A stretch of 64,000 nt of DNA, taken from positions 1,088,001 to 1,152,000 of the forward strand of contig OY970355.1 of the NCBI GenBank assembly GCA_963718525.1, given 5' to 3'. Of the stretch, positions 32,291 to 39,352 are shown piece by piece (positions within the stretch are counted from its first letter, which is position 1; every line of letters starts with the position of its first letter). Source of the stretch: Candidatus Dormiibacterota bacterium. Lineage in GTDB: Bacteria; Chloroflexota; Dormibacteria; Aeolococcales; Aeolococcaceae. A model generated the notes under the pieces. That model saw only the letters and a list, made by a program, of their open reading frames with translations. It searched no databases and was not told the origin of the DNA. Both the position numbers and the translations under genes were made by a program.

Positions 32291-32401
32291 GCCTGACGGC
32301 CCAGTTCGCTCTATTGGAGTGGTTCGCTGCACTAGCATCAACGGCGTGAAGGACACTGTCCGTTGTGCGCCGATCCGGCCTGGTCGAGGGGGTCGATAAC
32401 G

Positions 32402-35236
32402 GTGCCCACATCCACCCTTGAAGAGTACCGCCGCAAGCGCGATTTCAATCAGACCCCGGAGCCCAGCGGCGACCCGATCCCGCGTTCCGGTACGGACACT
32501 TCGGCGTGGGAGGGCCTGCCCCATGGAACGCGCTTCTGCGTCCAGAAACACCGGGCCACACGACTGCATTTCGACTTTCGCCTGGAGCATCAGGGCGTGC
32601 TGCTCTCGTGGGCGATCCCGAGGGGTCCCAGCCTCGATCCGGCCAAGAAGCGCCTGGCAGTGCAGACCGAGGACCATCCGATCGACTATGGCGAATTCGA
32701 GGGTGTCATCCCCTCCGGGTACGGCGCCGGCACGGTCATGCTCTGGGACATCGGCACGTACGAGTGGATCAAGGAAACCGCCGAGGATTACGAGCGTTCG
32801 CTGCAACGAGGCGACCTCAAGTTCCGCCTTCAGGGCACCAAGCTCTCGGGCGAGTTCGCGCTGATTCGTATCGGTGATCGTGGACGTCAGTACGGTGGCA
32901 GCAACGACGGAGACAGGAACTGGCTGTTGATCAAAAAGCGCGACGCCTCCGTGGTGGAGGGATACGAGGCAAGCGACTACGACGTTTCAGTCAAAACCGG
33001 CAGAAGCCTGGCTCAGATCGCTCAGGAAGGAGGTGGTGATCGTCGCGAGATGCGCCGCGCCGCTCGTGTCCGTGGTGCTCCCGCCCCGGCACAGCCCACC
33101 GTGCCCACCTCGACGCTCGCTCAGGCGCCCTCGCCGATGCTGGCCACGCCGGTCGACAAGCCGTTTTCGCGGGATGGCTGGCTGTTCGAGCTGAAATACG
33201 ACGGCATTCGCGCCATGGTGACCGTCGCCGGTGACCTGATACGCATCACGGGCCGGCGCGGCGGGGATGAGACCGCTCGCTACCCGGAGGCCACGGCGAT
33301 ACGTTCGGGAATACGAGCTGGGCAGGCGATCGTCGACGGCGAGCTGGTGGTGCTCAACGCCGACGGCCGTCCGTCGTTCGAGCGGATGCAGCAGCGGATC
33401 GGCGTCAGCCGCGAGCCCGATGTCCGCCGAGTCTCGGCCGAACATCCAGTGACCTTCATCGCGTTTGACCTGCTCGAGTTGGACGGCCGCGACCTGCTCA
33501 ACACCGAGCTGCGCATTCGCAAGAAGACGCTTCGCGAAACCATCGTCAACTCGCCCCACATCCTGTTCGCCGAACACGTCGAGCGCGATGGAACATCGCT
33601 CTTCGAGGTTGCTCGTTCGTCCGGCATCGAAGGCATTGTCGGCAAGCGCGCCGATTCCCTGTACCACCCAGGAATTCGCAGCCCCGATTGGGTGAAGATC
33701 AAGTCGTGGCTCAGCCAGTCGTGCGTCATCGTCGGCTACACCGCAGGACGCGGACGCCGGGCAAACCAGCTCGGCGCACTCATCCTGGCCGTGCGCGACG
33801 GAGGGCATCTCGTCCACTGCGGACAGGTCGGCACCGGCTTCGATGACAAGACCCTGCGCGATATCAGGGACCGCCTCCGACCCCTCGAGGTGAAGACCTG
33901 CCCGCTCGACGTCACGCCGAAAACCGCAGAGCCGGCGACCTGGGTCAAACCCGAGCTCGTCTGCGAAGTCCGTTTCGCCGGATGGACGCGCGACGGCATC
34001 CTCCGCCACCCCGCCTACCGCACCCTCCGCCTCGACCAGCGCCCCGAAGACACCGTCCGCGAAGTCTTCCTGAAATCTGAGCCGGCCAACGCGCCCCGGC
34101 CTCGAAGGGAGGGGACTAAGGCCAGCATCCGTTCGAGGCGCACAGCAAAGGGCGTACGCACGCCCACCAGGGACTCGCGACCGGGTGGCGGGGTGGGGGA
34201 TGGCGCCACCGGAGCGCTGGGCGACGAGGATGCGTCGCCCACAAGAAAAACCGACACGCCAAAGGAGACCCGGCGCGCAGGTGGCGAGGGCCCCCCACCC
34301 CGACAGGACCCGGAGGATCATGCGGCGCTCAGCACGCTGAGAACCCTGCACGGCAATGCGCATTGGGAAATCGCAAGCCGAAGACTTCCGCTCACGAATC
34401 TCCAAAAGGTGCTCTGGCCGGCGGACGGCATCACCAAGCGGGACATGATCGAGTACTACGTCCGAATGGCACCGTACATGCTGCCCTACCTGCGCGACCG
34501 TCCCCTGTCGATGCAGGTGTTCCCCGACGGTATCGACGGAAAGTCCTTCTGGCGCAAGGATAAACCCACGCATGCTCCGGCATGGATCGAGGCGTGGACA
34601 TACCACGGTGAGAAGACCAAGACGTACATCGTGGTCAACGAGGTTGCCACGCTCGCCTGGGTCGCCAACGCCGGTGTCATCGATCTGCATCCGTGGCACT
34701 CGCGCATCGATGCGCCGGAGCAACCGGATTGGGCGGTCTTCGACCTGGATCCATTCGAGCCCGCAACGTTCCAGGACGTCATCGATATCGCCAAGCTGGT
34801 CAAGGCGGCGCTGGACCACTACGGCATGCATGGCGTGGTGAAGACGAGTGGGCAGACGGGGTTGCAGATCTACGTGCCCGTTCGCCGAGGCCCCGACTAC
34901 TCGGCGGTGCGTCACTGGGTGGAGGAGGTGGGCAGAGCGATCGATCAGGCGGCGCCCGGGCGCGTGAGCTGGGAGTGGTCGGTTGCGAAGCGGACGGGAC
35001 GTATCCGGATCGACTACACCCAGAACATCATCAACAAAACCCTTGCGGCGCCTTACTCTCTCCGCCCAGCGCCCGGCGCCCCGGTATCGACGCCGATCGA
35101 GTGGGCGGAGCTCGACGACCCGGACCTGAGACCCGATCGATGGAACATCGCAACCATCGCGGAGCGCGTCGCGGAGAAGGGGGACCTCTTCGCGCCAGCC
35201 CTGCTGGCAGACCAGGACCTTCCGAGCCATCCGTAG
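32402..35236 (+). CDS. ligD: multifunctional NHEJ DNA ligase D (phosphoesterase-ligase-polymerase)
   Basis: PE domain: QKH.A.RLHFDFRLE, LAV.TEDHP. LIG domain: ELKYDG, DGEL, FDLL, EGIVGK, WVKIK. POL domain: LTN..KV.WP, DLDP, KTSG..G.Q, IDY.QN. Confidence 0.96.
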   Translation: MPTSTLEEYRRKRDFNQTPEPSGDPIPRSGTDTSAWEGLPHGTRFCVQKHRATRLHFDFRLEHQGVLLSWAIPRGPSLDPAKKRLAVQTEDHPIDYGEFEGVIPSGYGAGTVMLWDIGTYEWIKETAEDYERSLQRGDLKFRLQGTKLSGEFALIRIGDRGRQYGGSNDGDRNWLLIKKRDASVVEGYEASDYDVSVKTGRSLAQIAQEGGGDRREMRRAARVRGAPAPAQPTVPTSTLAQAPSPMLATPVDKPFSRDGWLFELKYDGIRAMVTVAGDLIRITGRRGGDETARYPEATAIRSGIRAGQAIVDGELVVLNADGRPSFERMQQRIGVSREPDVRRVSAEHPVTFIAFDLLELDGRDLLNTELRIRKKTLRETIVNSPHILFAEHVERDGTSLFEVARSSGIEGIVGKRADSLYHPGIRSPDWVKIKSWLSQSCVIVGYTAGRGRRANQLGALILAVRDGGHLVHCGQVGTGFDDKTLRDIRDRLRPLEVKTCPLDVTPKTAEPATWVKPELVCEVRFAGWTRDGILRHPAYRTLRLDQRPEDTVREVFLKSEPANAPRPRREGTKASIRSRRTAKGVRTPTRDSRPGGGVGDGATGALGDEDASPTRKTDTPKETRRAGGEGPPPRQDPEDHAALSTLRTLHGNAHWEIASRRLPLTNLQKVLWPADGITKRDMIEYYVRMAPYMLPYLRDRPLSMQVFPDGIDGKSFWRKDKPTHAPAWIEAWTYHGEKTKTYIVVNEVATLAWVANAGVIDLHPWHSRIDAPEQPDWAVFDLDPFEPATFQDVIDIAKLVKAALDHYGMHGVVKTSGQTGLQIYVPVRRGPDYSAVRHWVEEVGRAIDQAAPGRVSWEWSVAKRTGRIRIDYTQNIINKTLAAPYSLRPAPGAPVSTPIEWAELDDPDLRPDRWNIATIAERVAEKGDLFAPALLADQDLPSHP

Positions 35237-35270: not shown

Positions 35271-35903
35271 ATGCGACGGGTGCTCCTTCCGGCTGTGCTC
35301 CTCGCGGCCGCGACTGCCATCGCGTGTGGTTCGGGGTCCCCGACGGTGACGAGCACCGAGCCGACGCCCTTCACCGTGGCCCCGACGCCGGTTCAGAGCC
35401 AGACACCCCTGGCATCACCGACCGCCACTTCGACCGCCACGCCGACGGTGACCGCAACCGGGCCGTGCATGCCGGGTCAGTTCCAGGTCGCAATCCTGAA
35501 CACCCAGGGCGCCGCGGGCACCATCTACGCCACCTTCGAGGTTCGCAACGCTTCGACGAGCGACTGCACCGAGAACGGCTACGCCAGGCTGCAGCTGCTC
35601 AACTCCGGCCACGGTCTGCTGAGCACGAGCTGGTCGAACGACAACTCAATGGCCACTCCGAGCCCGGTCGACCTGCCCGCGGGCACCCAGCCGCTCGGAG
35701 TCACCGGCGCGACGGGACACGGCTATTTCCTGGTCTCGTGGACCGACGCGACCTGCTCCGCCGCGCAGTCCGAGATGCCCAAGTTCTGGCGGGTCACCCT
35801 GCCGACATCGCGGTTCCAGACGGATGTGGCCGATATCGACTCGAGCATGGTGTGCGGGGGTGCGATCAAGGTCGGCCCGATCAAGTCAGCCCCCTACGTC
35901 TGA
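35271..35903 (+). CDS. DUF4232-like secreted lipoprotein
   Basis: Lipobox AIA-C, Thr/Pro linker, C.......GAAG......F.VRN....C...GY. Confidence 0.7.
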   Translation: MRRVLLPAVLLAAATAIACGSGSPTVTSTEPTPFTVAPTPVQSQTPLASPTATSTATPTVTATGPCMPGQFQVAILNTQGAAGTIYATFEVRNASTSDCTENGYARLQLLNSGHGLLSTSWSNDNSMATPSPVDLPAGTQPLGVTGATGHGYFLVSWTDATCSAAQSEMPKFWRVTLPTSRFQTDVADIDSSMVCGGAIKVGPIKSAPYV

Positions 35904-35944
35904 CTGACCCCGGGGATCCTCGCTTCCCAATAGAATTCGGGGCC

Positions 35945-36466
35945 ATGGCAGTGTTGCTGCTCAACGCCTCGATGCAACCGCTCAACGTGATCAGTCACCG
36001 GCGGCTGGTGGTGCTCCTGACCAAGGAACGAGTCGCGTTCGTGGACGAGGCGGCGGAACGAGCTGCTGCGGAGGCGCTCGCGGGGCGCCGGCTGCCGGAA
36101 GGCGTCGTCATCGTCCGCCTGCTCCGGACCATCCACGTACCGCGCCGGTTGCTTCGACCCAACCGCCGCAACCTTCTGCTCCGCGACGATCACACGTGCC
36201 AATACTGTGGGCGCCTCGGCACCGCCGCCGAGCTCACCGTCGACCACGTCGTCCCGGTGTCTCGAGGGGGCGCTCCGGATCGCTGGGACAACGTCGTGAT
36301 CGCGTGCAGGAAGTGCAACTGGCGAAAGGCGAATCACCGTCCCGAAGAGGTCGGGCTCGTGCTCCGGCGTAAGCCGGTGCCGCTGACGCAGGAATACGCG
36401 CACATCATCTTTCTGCGCTACCCCGAGCTCAAGGCGGCGTACGACAGGCTGCTCGCCGCTGCCTGA
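35945..36466 (+). CDS. HNH endonuclease (McrA-like)
   Basis: VLLLNAS..PL, RD..TCQYCG, TVDHVVP.SRGG...WDNVV.AC..CN..K. Confidence 0.92.
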   Translation: MAVLLLNASMQPLNVISHRRLVVLLTKERVAFVDEAAERAAAEALAGRRLPEGVVIVRLLRTIHVPRRLLRPNRRNLLLRDDHTCQYCGRLGTAAELTVDHVVPVSRGGAPDRWDNVVIACRKCNWRKANHRPEEVGLVLRRKPVPLTQEYAHIIFLRYPELKAAYDRLLAAA

Positions 36467-36528: not shown

Positions 36529-37389
36529 ATGCCTCGATCCATGTGGCGCGGCGCCATCAGCTTTGGCATGGTGGCGATCCCCGTGCGGCTGTACCTGGCG
36601 ACCGAATCGAAGAGCGTTTCGTTCCGGCTTCTGTGTCCGGCTGACCACACGCCTGTCCGCAACAAGCGCTGGTGCCCGGAGGAGGACCGCGAGATCGGCT
36701 GGAGCGAAGCCGTTCGCGGGTACGAAGTGGGCAAGGACGAGTACGTGGTCGTCACCGATCAGGATCTCGACAACCTGCCGCTGATCACGACGCACACCAT
36801 CGACATCGTCGAGTTCTGCCCGGATTCGGAGATCGAGGCTGGCGTGTACCTCAAGAGCGCGTACTACCTGGAACCCGAGGCCGTCGGCGTCAAGCCCTAC
36901 GCGCTGCTCCGGGAGGCACTCGAGAAGACCGGCACGGTCGCCATCGGCAAGATCGCCCTTCGCGACCGCGAGCACCTCTGCCGCCTTGCACTGCATGAGC
37001 AGGGGCTGCTGCTCAACACGCTGCACTGGCCCGACGAGATCCGCTCCGCCGCCGAGCTGGCGATCCCCGAGCAGGCTCCTGACGTCGCCAAGAAGGAGCT
37101 GGACATGGCGGTGATGCTCGTCGAGAACATGAGCGCGCATTTCGACCCGGCGCGCTATCACGACAACTACCGCGAGGCGGTGATCCAGGTTGTCGAGGCC
37201 AAGCTGGCCAACAAGCCGATCGAGCGCCCGGAGGTGCAGGAACCCGGCAAGGTAACCGACCTCATGGCCGCGCTCAAGGCGTCTGTCGAAGCGGCGAAAA
37301 CGCGGCGGGCGGAAGGTGGTGCCTCCGAGGAATCCGAGGCCGACGACGCCGAGTCCCTGGAACCGGCCCGCCGTCGCCGGGCCTCCTGA
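36529..37389 (+). CDS. ku: NHEJ end-binding protein Ku
   Basis: W.GAISFG.V.IPV.LY.ATE, GYE......V, YYL.P, Y.LL.EAL, L.W.DE.R, DLMAAL..S, basic tail. Confidence 0.96.
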   Translation: MPRSMWRGAISFGMVAIPVRLYLATESKSVSFRLLCPADHTPVRNKRWCPEEDREIGWSEAVRGYEVGKDEYVVVTDQDLDNLPLITTHTIDIVEFCPDSEIEAGVYLKSAYYLEPEAVGVKPYALLREALEKTGTVAIGKIALRDREHLCRLALHEQGLLLNTLHWPDEIRSAAELAIPEQAPDVAKKELDMAVMLVENMSAHFDPARYHDNYREAVIQVVEAKLANKPIERPEVQEPGKVTDLMAALKASVEAAKTRRAEGGASEESEADDAESLEPARRRRAS

Positions 37390-37406: not shown

Positions 37407-38516
37407 GTGGCTGGAAGACCAAGCCTGTCTCGTGCCGCCCTGGAGGCCTGCGGCGACCCTCTGCCCTTTCGATCGCCGGTACCGCCCCGGCTCCCGGGCT
37501 ACATCCCGTTTGAGACCTCCGTCCCGTGCGCGGAGGCGTTCGATGACCCCGACTGGCTGTTCAGCGTCGACTGGGATGGAGCAAGAGCGCTGCTCTTCAT
37601 CGACGCGGACGGATCGGTGCGCATCCAGGGCGAAGTGCTCCGTGACCTCGCGCGGCGTTTCCCTGACATCCCTGCGGCCGCGGCCATCCCCAATGGCCGG
37701 GGCGCTGTCCTCGACGGTGTCATCGGAGTGCTCGACCGGGAAGGCCGTCCGGACCTGGCGGGCTTCGGCCGTCGCCTCGCCGCCGGGCCGGCCGCAGCAG
37801 CAGAGCTTCCGGCGGTGTACCTCTGCTGTGACGTGCTGCACCTCGACGGGCGCTCGACGATGGGATGGCCCCTGGATCGTCGCCTCGATGCGCTCAGCGA
37901 TCTCACCCGCCGGAGTGACGTCCTCCAGGCGCCGGACCACGTGCGCGGACGCGGCGAGGCGCTCGCGGCCGCAGCAGCCGGACGGAGCCTGCCGGCGCTG
38001 CTCGCCCGGCGGGGCGCGGCTTGCTACCGGCCGGGCGTCGCCTCCCCTGATCGACTGCGCATCGGGCTCGCCGATCAGACGACCTGCGTCATCGCAGGCG
38101 TGGTTCCGCGCCGGGCTGGCACGAGGCTCATTCTCGGAGAGCATGTCGACGGTCGCCTCACCTTCGCGGGACAGGTCGAGGGACCGCGTGACCCGCTTGT
38201 GGCCGCGTGGCTCGCGCGGCACATCGCCGACCTGACGGTCAAAACCGCATCACTCGACGGCGTGCAACCTGTCAACGCGACCTGGCTGCGACCCGCGCTC
38301 ACCGCGACCGTCCGGCACCACGGCCGCAGCGCTGCCGGCGCGCTCCTGCGCCCGGCGCTCCTCGCGGTGCGCGACGACGTCGATCCGCGCTGGTGCGTGC
38401 AACGACCCGCGGTCGCCGGCCCGGTCGAGCTGCACGCCGGGACCCGCTTCTCGCCGACACTCCTGATACCGCTCCCTCTCGGCGATCTTTCAGGGCTCCC
38501 TCAGGCAAGTCGATGA
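37407..38516 (+). CDS. ATP-dependent DNA ligase-like protein, predicted catalytically inactive
   Basis: Colinear with the LigD LIG+OB domain, but motif I reads SVDWDG (vs ELKYDG), III DGVI, IV PALLAR, V RLRIG. Confidence 0.8.
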   Translation: MAGRPSLSRAALEACGDPLPFRSPVPPRLPGYIPFETSVPCAEAFDDPDWLFSVDWDGARALLFIDADGSVRIQGEVLRDLARRFPDIPAAAAIPNGRGAVLDGVIGVLDREGRPDLAGFGRRLAAGPAAAAELPAVYLCCDVLHLDGRSTMGWPLDRRLDALSDLTRRSDVLQAPDHVRGRGEALAAAAAGRSLPALLARRGAACYRPGVASPDRLRIGLADQTTCVIAGVVPRRAGTRLILGEHVDGRLTFAGQVEGPRDPLVAAWLARHIADLTVKTASLDGVQPVNATWLRPALTATVRHHGRSAAGALLRPALLAVRDDVDPRWCVQRPAVAGPVELHAGTRFSPTLLIPLPLGDLSGLPQASR

Positions 38517-39352
38517 CCGCTTCGGTCCTCATGTGCCGGCCCGATCACTTCGGGATCGAGTACGAGATCAACCCGTGGATGCACGTTGCGGTCGAGGTCG
38601 ATCACGCGCTGGCGGCGTCGCAGTGGGACGCGCTGTACCGCAAGTACGTCGATCTCGGCGTGGTTGTGGAGTTGGCGACATCCGTCGCGGGTCTGCCCGA
38701 CATGGTCTTCACCGCCAACGCGGCCGTGCTCTGGGACGACCGTGCGGTGCTGAGCAACTTCCATCATGCCGAACGGCAGGGCGAGGAGACGCACTGGCGC
38801 GAGGAACTCGAGCGCCTCGGCTTCGATGTTCACGAGCTGCCGCGATCGCTGTCCTTCGAGGGCGCCGGCGATGCCCTGTTCGTCGGTGATCGCCTGTTCT
38901 GCGGTTACGGGTTCCGGACCGACCGCGAGGCGCACCACCCGGTGGCGCGCATCCTCGAGGTCGAGGTCGTGTCACTCCAACTGGTCGACCCGCGCTTCTA
39001 TCACCTGGACACCTGCTTCTGCCCACTCGATGCCACCAATGTTCTCGCGGCCCCTGCCGCATTCGCCCCGGAGTCGATGCGCTTGATTCGCGAGCTGGTG
39101 CCGAATCTGATCGAGGTGCCGGTCGAGGTGGCGGCGGGCTTTGCGTGCAACGCCATGCCGCTCGGGCGGCACTTGCTCTCCTCGCTGACGATCTCGCAGT
39201 TGGAGACTCCTCTGAAGGCCGCCGGGTACACTCCGATTCCGCTGCCTATGGGGGAGTTCCTCAAGGCCGGTGGTGGGGTCCGCTGCCTCTCGCTGCCACT
39301 CGGTGAGCGAGGTCGCGCCCGCACCCAGGATGCCGCCCAAGGCTCAGGGTAG
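38513..39352 (+). CDS. amidinotransferase / dimethylarginine dimethylaminohydrolase family protein
   Basis: LMC.P.HF...YEINPWM, LPDMVFTAN, FEGAGD, FYHLDTCF, EF.KAGG.VRC. ATGA overlap with the upstream gene. Confidence 0.9.
   Translation: MTASVLMCRPDHFGIEYEINPWMHVAVEVDHALAASQWDALYRKYVDLGVVVELATSVAGLPDMVFTANAAVLWDDRAVLSNFHHAERQGEETHWREELERLGFDVHELPRSLSFEGAGDALFVGDRLFCGYGFRTDREAHHPVARILEVEVVSLQLVDPRFYHLDTCFCPLDATNVLAAPAAFAPESMRLIRELVPNLIEVPVEVAAGFACNAMPLGRHLLSSLTISQLETPLKAAGYTPIPLPMGEFLKAGGGVRCLSLPLGERGRARTQDAAQGSG

Follow-up and report, generated by a model that had tools for sequence, protein, structure and literature searches.

What is a DNA ligase homologue that has lost its catalytic lysine doing directly behind a ku gene? 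The question is raised by a 64,000-nucleotide stretch of DNA from a Candidatus Dormiibacterota bacterium (contig OY970355.1, positions 1,088,001 to 1,152,000; this whole stretch is called the window here). In it, a gene at 37407..38516 on the + strand, recognised from its open reading frame (ORF) and translation, its homology to LigD, an AlphaFold2 (AF2) model and Foldseek, encodes a ligase-fold protein of 369 amino acids that lacks the motif I lysine and that we term PsLig. Textbooks present bacterial end joining as a minimal system of two proteins, Ku and the multifunctional LigD. Our answer, which we place just on the probable side of even, is that PsLig is a non-catalytic, Ku-associated DNA-end factor and the inactive descendant of a ku-linked standalone ligase of non-homologous end joining (NHEJ).

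Ligase fold and catalytic residues of PsLig

The PsLig ORF is open from a GTG start through 369 codons to a TGA stop. It begins 17 nucleotides past the end of ku (36529..37389, + strand; 286 amino acids; PF02735 E 3.7e-42; TIGR02772 291 bits, cut-off 150), and its stop overlaps the ATG of the following gene, at 38513, as ATGA. A preliminary description of the locus, made from the sequence alone, had reported this intact frame directly behind ku and its overlap with the next gene, and both are present. The start may lie slightly downstream, by about 20 residues, because residues 1-19 are modelled with low confidence by AF2 and some database homologues are annotated as 20-25 amino acids shorter.

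In a BLASTP comparison, PsLig aligned with the nucleotidyltransferase (NTase) and OB parts of the LigD in the window with 30% identity over 333 amino acids (E 2e-30), which bears out the alignment with the ligase and OB part of LigD given in that description. This LigD (32363..35236, + strand; 957 amino acids) has three domains in the order PE-LIG-POL by its Pfam and NCBIfam matches and an intact ELKYDG motif I; it is presumed from its sequence to be an active NHEJ ligase, and the motif I lysine is found in all 28 aligned LigD ligase domains. The curated models scored PsLig low, with 26.6 bits for PF01068 (cut-off 26.2), 23.1 for PF04679 (27.5) and 112.3 for TIGR02779 (227.75), so that only PF01068 was passed, and that barely. 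Despite these scores, the alignments place the homology between PsLig and ligases far beyond chance. When the PDB was searched with the PsLig sequence, the only significant matches were to the LigD ligase domain of Mycobacterium tuberculosis (1vs0, 6nhx and 6nhz; ~1e-13).

The AF2 model, for which an alignment of 60 family members was supplied, had a predicted local distance difference test (pLDDT) value of 85 and a predicted template modelling score (pTM) of 0.81, and was confident from residue 30 to about residue 340, in which an NTase domain precedes an OB domain. The top Foldseek match was 6nhx, a structure of the LigD ligase domain of M. tuberculosis with ATP (E 6.7e-24; TM score 0.75 on the target); 6nhx, 6nhz and 1vs0 lay at E 7e-24 to 2e-22 and were followed by archaeal and human ligases. 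Both the AF2 model and Foldseek thus assign to PsLig the two-domain NTase and OB fold of NHEJ-type ATP-dependent ligases. By the LigD alignment, the motif table described below and the secondary structure of the model, the NTase-like domain covers approximately residues 30-222 (37494..38072, + strand) and has degenerate motifs I, III, IIIa, IV and V. By the alignment and motif table, the OB-fold domain covers approximately residues 223-335 (38073..38411, + strand), with a PF04679 match at residues 239-324 and motif VI partly kept. The C-terminal tail, residues 342-369 (38430..38513, + strand), is predicted to be disordered (pLDDT <50), yet F348, L356 and P357 are invariant in the 60-sequence alignment, making the tail a candidate short docking motif.

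The substitutions are most clearly seen when PsLig is compared with the LigD in the window, where ELKYDG has become SVDWDG (motif I), DGEL has become DGVI (III), EGIVGK has become PALLAR (IV) and WVKIK has become RLRIG (V). The position of the adenylated motif I lysine is occupied by Asp55, encoded by GAC at 37569..37571 (+ strand). All of these replacements, as listed in the preliminary description, were present in the BLASTP alignment, and the Asp55 codon was read in the DNA. We then tabulated the motifs of 31 PsLig copies from the family of the window (f1) against those of 37 ligases that keep KxDG, namely 28 LigD ligase domains and nine ku-adjacent ligases from another family of the class (f4). 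The motif I lysine, present in 37 of 37 active ligases, is aspartate in 29 and glutamate in two of the 31 f1 copies. The glutamate two residues before it is serine in all 31 (S53), the motif III glutamate is valine in 30 and serine in one (V105 in the window), the motif IV glycine is alanine in 30 and the motif IV lysine is arginine in all 31 (R201). In motif V, the arginine is alanine (A212) and the tryptophan is arginine (R216) in every f1 copy, the first lysine is arginine in 30 of the 31 (R218) and the second is alanine, proline, glycine or serine (G220 in the window). Three further positions vary within f1: the motif IIIa aromatic residue, phenylalanine in the active ligases (F in 10, S in 7, T in 7 and C in 4), the motif IV glutamate (P, V, A or S) and the first arginine of motif VI (L in 17, R in 8 and V in 3, with leucine in the window copy). 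Every adenylyl-transfer-site residue that is invariant in the 37 active ligases is replaced in f1.

The replacement was selective. Among the 42 columns that have at most one exception in the 37 active ligases, f1 keeps 20, including the D-G-x-R of motif I, the D-G of motif III, the aspartate of motif IIIa, a Y-x-P-G sequence and the R-x-D of motif VI (R322 and D324 in PsLig). Many of the replacement residues are themselves invariant (S53, V105, R201, A212, R216 and R218 in 30-31 of the 31 copies), which indicates a new constraint rather than simple drift. PsLig therefore has neither the KxDG of an NHEJ ligase nor its motif III glutamate, motif IV lysine and motif V Lys-x-Lys, and we infer from these sequences that it would be incapable of self-adenylation or DNA sealing. 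Clear homology to an enzyme is here combined with loss of the essential catalytic residues, as in a pseudoenzyme. In comparison with the LIG domain of LigD or a standalone NHEJ ligase (TIGR02779; 1vs0, 6nhx, 6nhz), PsLig has the NTase and OB fold and the ku linkage in common; it differs in lacking the lysine nucleophile and the other adenylyl-transfer residues, in its extra conserved C-terminal tail and in being almost free of lysine.

With regard to composition, PsLig has one lysine and 42 arginines in 369 residues, and of 109 family proteins of at least 320 amino acids, 54 have no lysine and 39 have one. Lysine makes up 4-5% of LigD, Ku and GyrB in the window and 0.4% of the histidine kinase (2 in 466 amino acids). 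We considered lysine depletion as a special signal of PsLig and set it aside as not clearly special, since the neighbouring histidine kinase is also poor in lysine.

Conservation, selection and linkage to ku

A word-indexed protein search in which 8000 candidates were scored gave 147 proteins at E <= 1e-3, with identities of 99% to 45% among the 120 matches listed. Overall, full-length homologues ranged in identity from 99% down to 44% and, where named, were called 'hypothetical protein [Candidatus Dormibacteria bacterium]' or carried the JGI automatic name 'LigD'. In an alignment of 121 sequences including the query, the motif I lysine was found in none of the 111 homologues covering the motif, the other 10 being fragments. 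The proposal that no relative keeps KxDG thus held for these 111 homologues as well as for the 31 f1 copies, all of which have aspartate or glutamate.

The PsLig family was found in all 24 genomes of the genus of the window in a scan of GTDB species genomes and in 14 of 17 sampled f1 genomes; among 401 genomes of the phylum, matches reaching the score of the family came from f1 only. When 284 genomes of the class were scanned, PsLig was matched in 78 of 84 f1 genomes that were at least 80% complete, a count that includes three unpublished genomes (G213, G311 and G439) and is 75 of 81 without them. The genus, phylum and class tallies all include unpublished genomes, none of whose sequences was aligned. 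Four matches in the class scan were flagged as having a stop inside; in each case this was the natural stop codon, and all four genes are intact with aspartate or glutamate at the lysine site.

We estimated the ratio of non-synonymous to synonymous substitution rates (dN/dS) within the genus by the pairwise method of Nei and Gojobori (NG86). The median for PsLig was 0.138 (21 sequences; 209 usable pairs of 210), as compared with 0.118 for Ku, 0.118 for the gene that follows PsLig (described below), 0.146 for LigD, 0.156 for the histidine kinase, 0.067 for the response regulator and 0.064 for GyrB. For the closest pair in the genus (90% protein identity), the values were 0.196 for PsLig and 0.200 for LigD. 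Between f1 genera, PsLig gave 0.52 and Ku 0.35, values that we judged unreliable because dS appeared to plateau near 0.7-1.0; the within-genus values were therefore used. Purifying selection on PsLig is as strong as that on Ku and LigD. A decaying pseudogene would show dN/dS near 1 and frequent frameshifts or stops, and PsLig shows neither; purifying selection and a frame kept intact over the long term are what is expected of a pseudoenzyme, and the suggestion that one is kept by selection in a ku operon is supported. Split copies of PsLig were found in three genomes (G003, G022 and G005). The neighbouring genes are also split at loci L021, L031 (G003) and L032 (G005), the latter two of which carry a split PsLig; of the three genomes with split copies, the comparison covered these two. 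As the neighbours are fragmented too, the PsLig splits point to indel-prone assemblies.

The adjacency to ku is likewise conserved, as had been proposed: ku lies directly upstream of PsLig in all 35 f1 loci examined (22/22 in the genus, 9/9 in other f1 genera and 4/4 extra). LigD is nearby in four of the nine loci from other f1 genera. Five f1 genomes without an adjacent LigD were checked. Four of them have a full LigD elsewhere; in the remaining one, G195, the open frame found joins PE to POL with no LIG part, and other ligases are present. This frame (G195:C4:151833-153530; 576 amino acids) matches residues 17-257 (PE) and 642-955 (POL) of the LigD query, in a genome where ku and PsLig are present. 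Five of the six f1 genomes without a PsLig match also lack a Ku domain (PF02735 in 0/5; completeness 84-98%), and in the sixth, G447, ku runs off the contig end where PsLig would follow. Within f1, PsLig was therefore found only in Ku-carrying genomes, and it combines the linkage to ku and the co-occurrence that mark a component of NHEJ.

The genome of the window (G000) contains a single ku and, besides LigD, two POL genes that stand alone and three other ATP-dependent ligases whose motif I is intact (ERKFDG, EPKWDG and EDKYDG). The three ligase genes and the two standalone LigD-type polymerase-domain genes lie outside the window, at C1:790930-791841(-), 1434807-1435691(+), 1512619-1513554(+), 286567-287355(-) and 3109455-3110309(+). 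Sealing capacity is thus not lacking, and a lysine-poor composition alone does not erase a catalytic lysine. Every genome checked carries other ligases with an intact KxDG. The complement of ligases and archaeo-eukaryotic primase (AEP) proteins in G000 is rich for a genome of 3.3 Mb.

Ku-adjacent ligases of other families and genes around PsLig

The gene behind ku in nine f4 genomes encodes a standalone ligase of about 350 amino acids in which motif I reads EVKWDGLR and the other catalytic residues are intact (9/9). These ligases, which are uncharacterised, have the same position after ku, the same length class and the same clade (96/91) as PsLig, and are presumably active, judging from their motifs. 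They keep all 42 of the near-invariant positions, as compared with 20 in PsLig, which stands on a long stem branch; their tail has a different conserved sequence and ends in LTRFPF. The f4 genomes also hold a separate cluster of PE, LIG and POL. Its parts lie in a row, with matches split by stops or frame changes in several genomes (G105:C80:56718-59055; G405, G222, G287 and G428), and LigD may be split into separate genes in several f4 genomes.

When 1.84 billion representatives were searched with a profile, 20417 matches were obtained at E <= 1e-3. Among the best 150 of these, about 30 belonged to the family with aspartate or glutamate, about 102 kept the lysine and 18 were other full-length ligase-like proteins without it, with L, A, R, S, N, D or I at the lysine site. 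Two of these 18 clusters were named, as '[Chloroflexota bacterium]' and '[Candidatus Dormibacteria bacterium]'. One lysine-less representative, P0204, was traced through the class and led to ku-adjacent orthologues in two more families, f3 and f5. The f5 orthologue was found in 9/9 genomes; its motif I reads FEVRWDGLR (K to R), and the motif III glutamate and both motif V lysines are lost. In f3, a ku-adjacent orthologue was found in 34 of 35 genomes (including three unpublished). The 14 that were fetched all have alanine or serine in place of the lysine and have lost both motif V lysines, while the motif III glutamate and the motif IV lysine are kept; ku is upstream in 13 of the 14, and the remaining locus is cut by a contig end. 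Within-family dN/dS was 0.233 for the dead copies of f5 and 0.158 for those of f3, as compared with 0.215 for the live ligases of f4. Judging from these sequences, lysine-less ku-adjacent ligases span three families of one class (f1, f3 and f5). Several of the other representatives (P0143, P0147, P0157, P0210, P0256, P0263 and others) have motif I of the form xEVLWDG or xEVIWAG, with leucine or isoleucine in place of the lysine, and may be another dead lineage.

We placed 46 sequences in a tree (IQ-TREE, LG+C20+F+G4), with supports given as ultrafast bootstrap (UFBoot) and SH-like approximate likelihood ratio test (SH-aLRT). The ku-adjacent ligases of f1, f3, f4 and f5 formed one clade (96/91), apart from the LigD domains of f1 and f2 (93/91), and each family was monophyletic (100/100). 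A first tree of 48 sequences had grouped f1 with f4 (95/92) under a warning of long branches; once f3 and f5 were included, this particular warning disappeared and the grouping remained. The longest stem is that of f1, with 1.17-1.37 substitutions per site. The preliminary description had called PsLig a paralogue of the LigD ligase. The homology and the catalytic degeneration stand; a recent duplication of the LigD in the window was rejected, as PsLig groups with the ku-adjacent standalone ligases in both trees, in a separate clade in which a sister family is intact. The order within the clade, f1 | (f4, (f3, f5)), was weakly supported (84/75 and 76/42). If the intact site of f4 is ancestral, two or more independent inactivations would be the simplest reading, and the differing replacement residues agree with this.

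Between ligD and ku in the window lies a gene for a protein of 380 amino acids (35324..36466, + strand) with an HNH endonuclease domain (PF01844 E 1.7e-13 at residues 292-337). It occupies this place in the loci of the genus and in four loci of other f1 genera; across the genus, its C-terminal HNH half is ~93% identical and its N-terminal half 40-60%. It may be an NHEJ-associated end-processing nuclease. The distance between the HNH gene and ku is 50-90 nucleotides at other loci, and at L021, L030 and L031 (G006, G019 and G003) there is ~3.7-3.8 kb of extra DNA. At L032 (G005:C2:1-20000), the gyrB-ligD-HNH-ku-PsLig block is present twice, inverted and joined at PsLig, and both PsLig copies are broken or diverged, with 46-63% identity in pieces; this double block may have arisen in the assembly or may reflect a genuine palindromic rearrangement.

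The gene that PsLig overlaps (38513..39352, + strand) encodes a dimethylargininase / arginine-dihydrolase-like (DDAH-like) protein (PF19420 E 9.7e-15; NF045659 277 bits, under the cut-off of 300) and scores under the NCBIfam equivalog cut-offs. It directly follows PsLig in every locus of the genus whose contig reaches there. In other f1 genera it is directly next in three and nearby in four more (7/9 loci), and none was seen beside the ku-ligase pair in the f3, f4 and f5 loci. A response regulator and a histidine kinase follow on the same strand, and gyrB lies upstream and is divergent. The C-terminal tail of Ku (window 37150-37389), past the conserved VTDLMAALKASVEAAK, is acidic in the genus of the window, where stretches of E, D and S precede a terminal RRRRAS; in f4 (L042-L050), where the neighbouring ligase is live, the tail is rich in lysine and arginine. 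A 1767-nucleotide contig from a relative with 92% identity covers the 3' end of ku, PsLig and the 5' end of the DDAH-like gene; it was found among the contigs of sequencing runs X1 (labelled 'RNA? probably DNA') and X2 (of unknown kind) and is uninformative on expression. The search for sequencing runs listed none that is clearly of RNA.

Possible roles of PsLig in end joining

If it serves the end-joining machinery of Ku as a non-catalytic subunit, PsLig would dock on Ku through a surface of its ligase domain, through its conserved disordered C-terminal tail or through both. It would bind broken or nicked DNA in the fashion of a ligase and hold or align the ends, which LigD or another ligase would then heal and seal. 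That f3 and f5 have likewise lost catalysis in their orthologous ku-adjacent genes suggests that selection maintains a non-catalytic role and not sealing. The preliminary description had proposed a scaffold or a Ku/LigD regulator, and a role of that kind is weakly supported by co-folding. When two Ku chains were folded with PsLig, the interaction prediction score from aligned errors (ipSAE) was 0.41 (runs 0.39, 0.41 and 0.42), as compared with 0.00 in all three controls, with at least 49% of contacts agreeing between runs and a partner pLDDT of at least 73. Of 80 solved complexes, 58 reached the pass mark, as did two of 110 mismatched pairs; the passes at 0.60 or less comprised only seven of the 80 solved complexes but both of the mismatches. 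The co-fold also used custom alignments and three chains, unlike the calibration.

Docking of Ku on a ligase domain has a precedent. In PMC13717202, the C-terminus of M. tuberculosis Ku is described as docking on the ligase domain of LigD as well as on the polymerase domain, with D522, K579 and L580 of LigD as the docking residues. We mapped K579 and L580 by hand to D161 and A162 of PsLig, in a conserved helix where L156 and R159 are invariant, and discarded this match as not diagnostic, the helix being conserved in all ligases. In vertebrates, the DNA-end binding of DNA ligase IV (Lig4) is needed for the short-range synaptic complex, according to PMC10858965, and the same kind of role is proposed here for PsLig. 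Lig4 is a live enzyme that fills both roles together with XRCC4, XLF and Ku70/80, whereas PsLig would be a separate, dead paralogue with a structural role only, and the comparison implies no homology beyond the shared ligase fold. Aniukwu and colleagues reportedly found in 2008 that an engineered, ligase-dead LigD still supports NHEJ in Mycobacterium smegmatis, with LigC as the back-up sealer. That protein is a laboratory point mutant with three domains; PsLig is natural, long conserved and composed of a single module.

Several observations weigh against a Ku-associated end factor. A co-fold pass as weak as this one is more often wrong than right unless the complex was likely beforehand. The net charge of the aligned part is only about +3 in PsLig, as compared with about +6 in LigD ligase domains. 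In representatives at 50% identity, the lysine site is mostly aspartate and can also be glutamate, asparagine or glycine, so that the aspartate itself may have no special role. In three f2 genomes with Ku and LigD, no ku-linked ligase homologue was found with the PsLig query; Ku therefore does not need such a partner. The adjacency of PsLig to ku could also be in part inherited synteny among related genomes.

Much of what favours a structural partner of Ku would equally fit a negative regulator or decoy that occupies the ligase-docking site of Ku, or a DNA nick or end, without sealing. Such a protein would delay or restrict joining, and so favour end processing or recombination, or limit mutagenic NHEJ to dormancy. 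The kept ligase fold, the lost chemistry, the strict linkage to ku and the Ku co-fold are common to both; a dead ligase that still binds its substrate is an intrinsic competitive inhibitor of live ligases, and competition for the site is plausible because, in M. tuberculosis, it is the ligase domain of LigD on which the Ku C-terminus docks (PMC13717202). No evidence here separates a decoy from a positive scaffold. However, the f4 gene, which resembles the ancestor, encodes an intact ligase at this very place, and a role in productive assembly is simpler than an inhibitor invented three times; we regard the decoy as unlikely, though it deserves more weight than the explanations that follow. It is rather improbable that PsLig is an enzyme or ligand sensor with a different chemistry, in which a pocket remodelled around Asp55 and the invariant Arg60, Arg201, Arg216 and Arg218 would have as its ligand a nucleotide, a 5'-phosphate or a 5'-adenylated DNA end, and would act on it (e.g. 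by deadenylation) or signal. The invariant replacement residues and the retained D-G-x-R of motif I and D-G of motif III would fit such a pocket. However, the motif IIIa aromatic and motif IV glutamate positions vary, which argues against a conserved nucleotide pocket, the dead copies of f3 and f5 have different pocket residues, so that no common new chemistry is evident, and the Pfam and NCBIfam scans matched no known family with such chemistry.

That PsLig works outside end joining, its place beside ku being inherited and the protein having been recruited elsewhere, for example with the DDAH-like gene, seems to us slightly less probable still. The overlap of the two genes and their proximity across f1 would favour this, but the DDAH-like gene was not seen beside the f3, f4 and f5 loci, whereas ku is always adjacent; PsLig-less f1 genomes have no Ku either, and ku remains beside PsLig even where, as is often the case, LigD lies in another part of the genome. 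It is hardly credible that PsLig is a decaying pseudogene or a mis-called ORF. The window is 70% G+C, and long spurious ORFs are common in such DNA; the curated ligase models score PsLig below or at their thresholds, and three genomes have split copies. Against this stand the within-genus dN/dS, full-length homologues down to 44% identity and a confidently modelled fold, together with the fragmentation of neighbouring genes at L021, L031 and L032 and the natural stops behind all four flagged matches.

We return to PsLig as a non-catalytic partner of Ku, and to what this would mean for the class. It is possible, although we doubt it rather more than we believe it, that the primary function of the ku-adjacent ligase of Dormibacteria is one without ligation (Ku-dependent end bridging, end protection or hand-over to LigD), with catalysis lost independently at least twice and selection kept. 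The ku-adjacent ligase would then correspond, in bacteria, to Lig4 in its structural role or to accessory factors of the XRCC4/XLF type. The preliminary description knew of no such component of bacterial NHEJ; we likewise found no description of a natural lysine-less ku-linked ligase in the literature within reach, which included a structural review of LigD (PMC8656161) and left out subscription papers and supplements. The terms 'lysine' and 'inactive' are absent from the accessible parts of two surveys of NHEJ distribution (PMC7719229 and bioRxiv 10.1101/2023.09.30.560322), whose supplementary tables may list PsLig-type proteins as ordinary LIG domains. Such proteins are currently annotated 'LigD', 'DNA ligase' or 'hypothetical', and censuses of NHEJ at the domain level probably count them as functional LIG domains.

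If PsLig is what we propose, bacterial NHEJ would not always be a two-component system of Ku and LigD and could include a dedicated non-catalytic third subunit. The family would also offer a natural experiment that separates what an NHEJ ligase does structurally from its sealing role; at present, this question is addressed in mycobacteria and vertebrates by means of engineered ligase-dead mutants. Dormibacteria abound in soils that are dry, cold and poor in nutrients, and a specialised form of break repair could bear on their survival in long dormancy.

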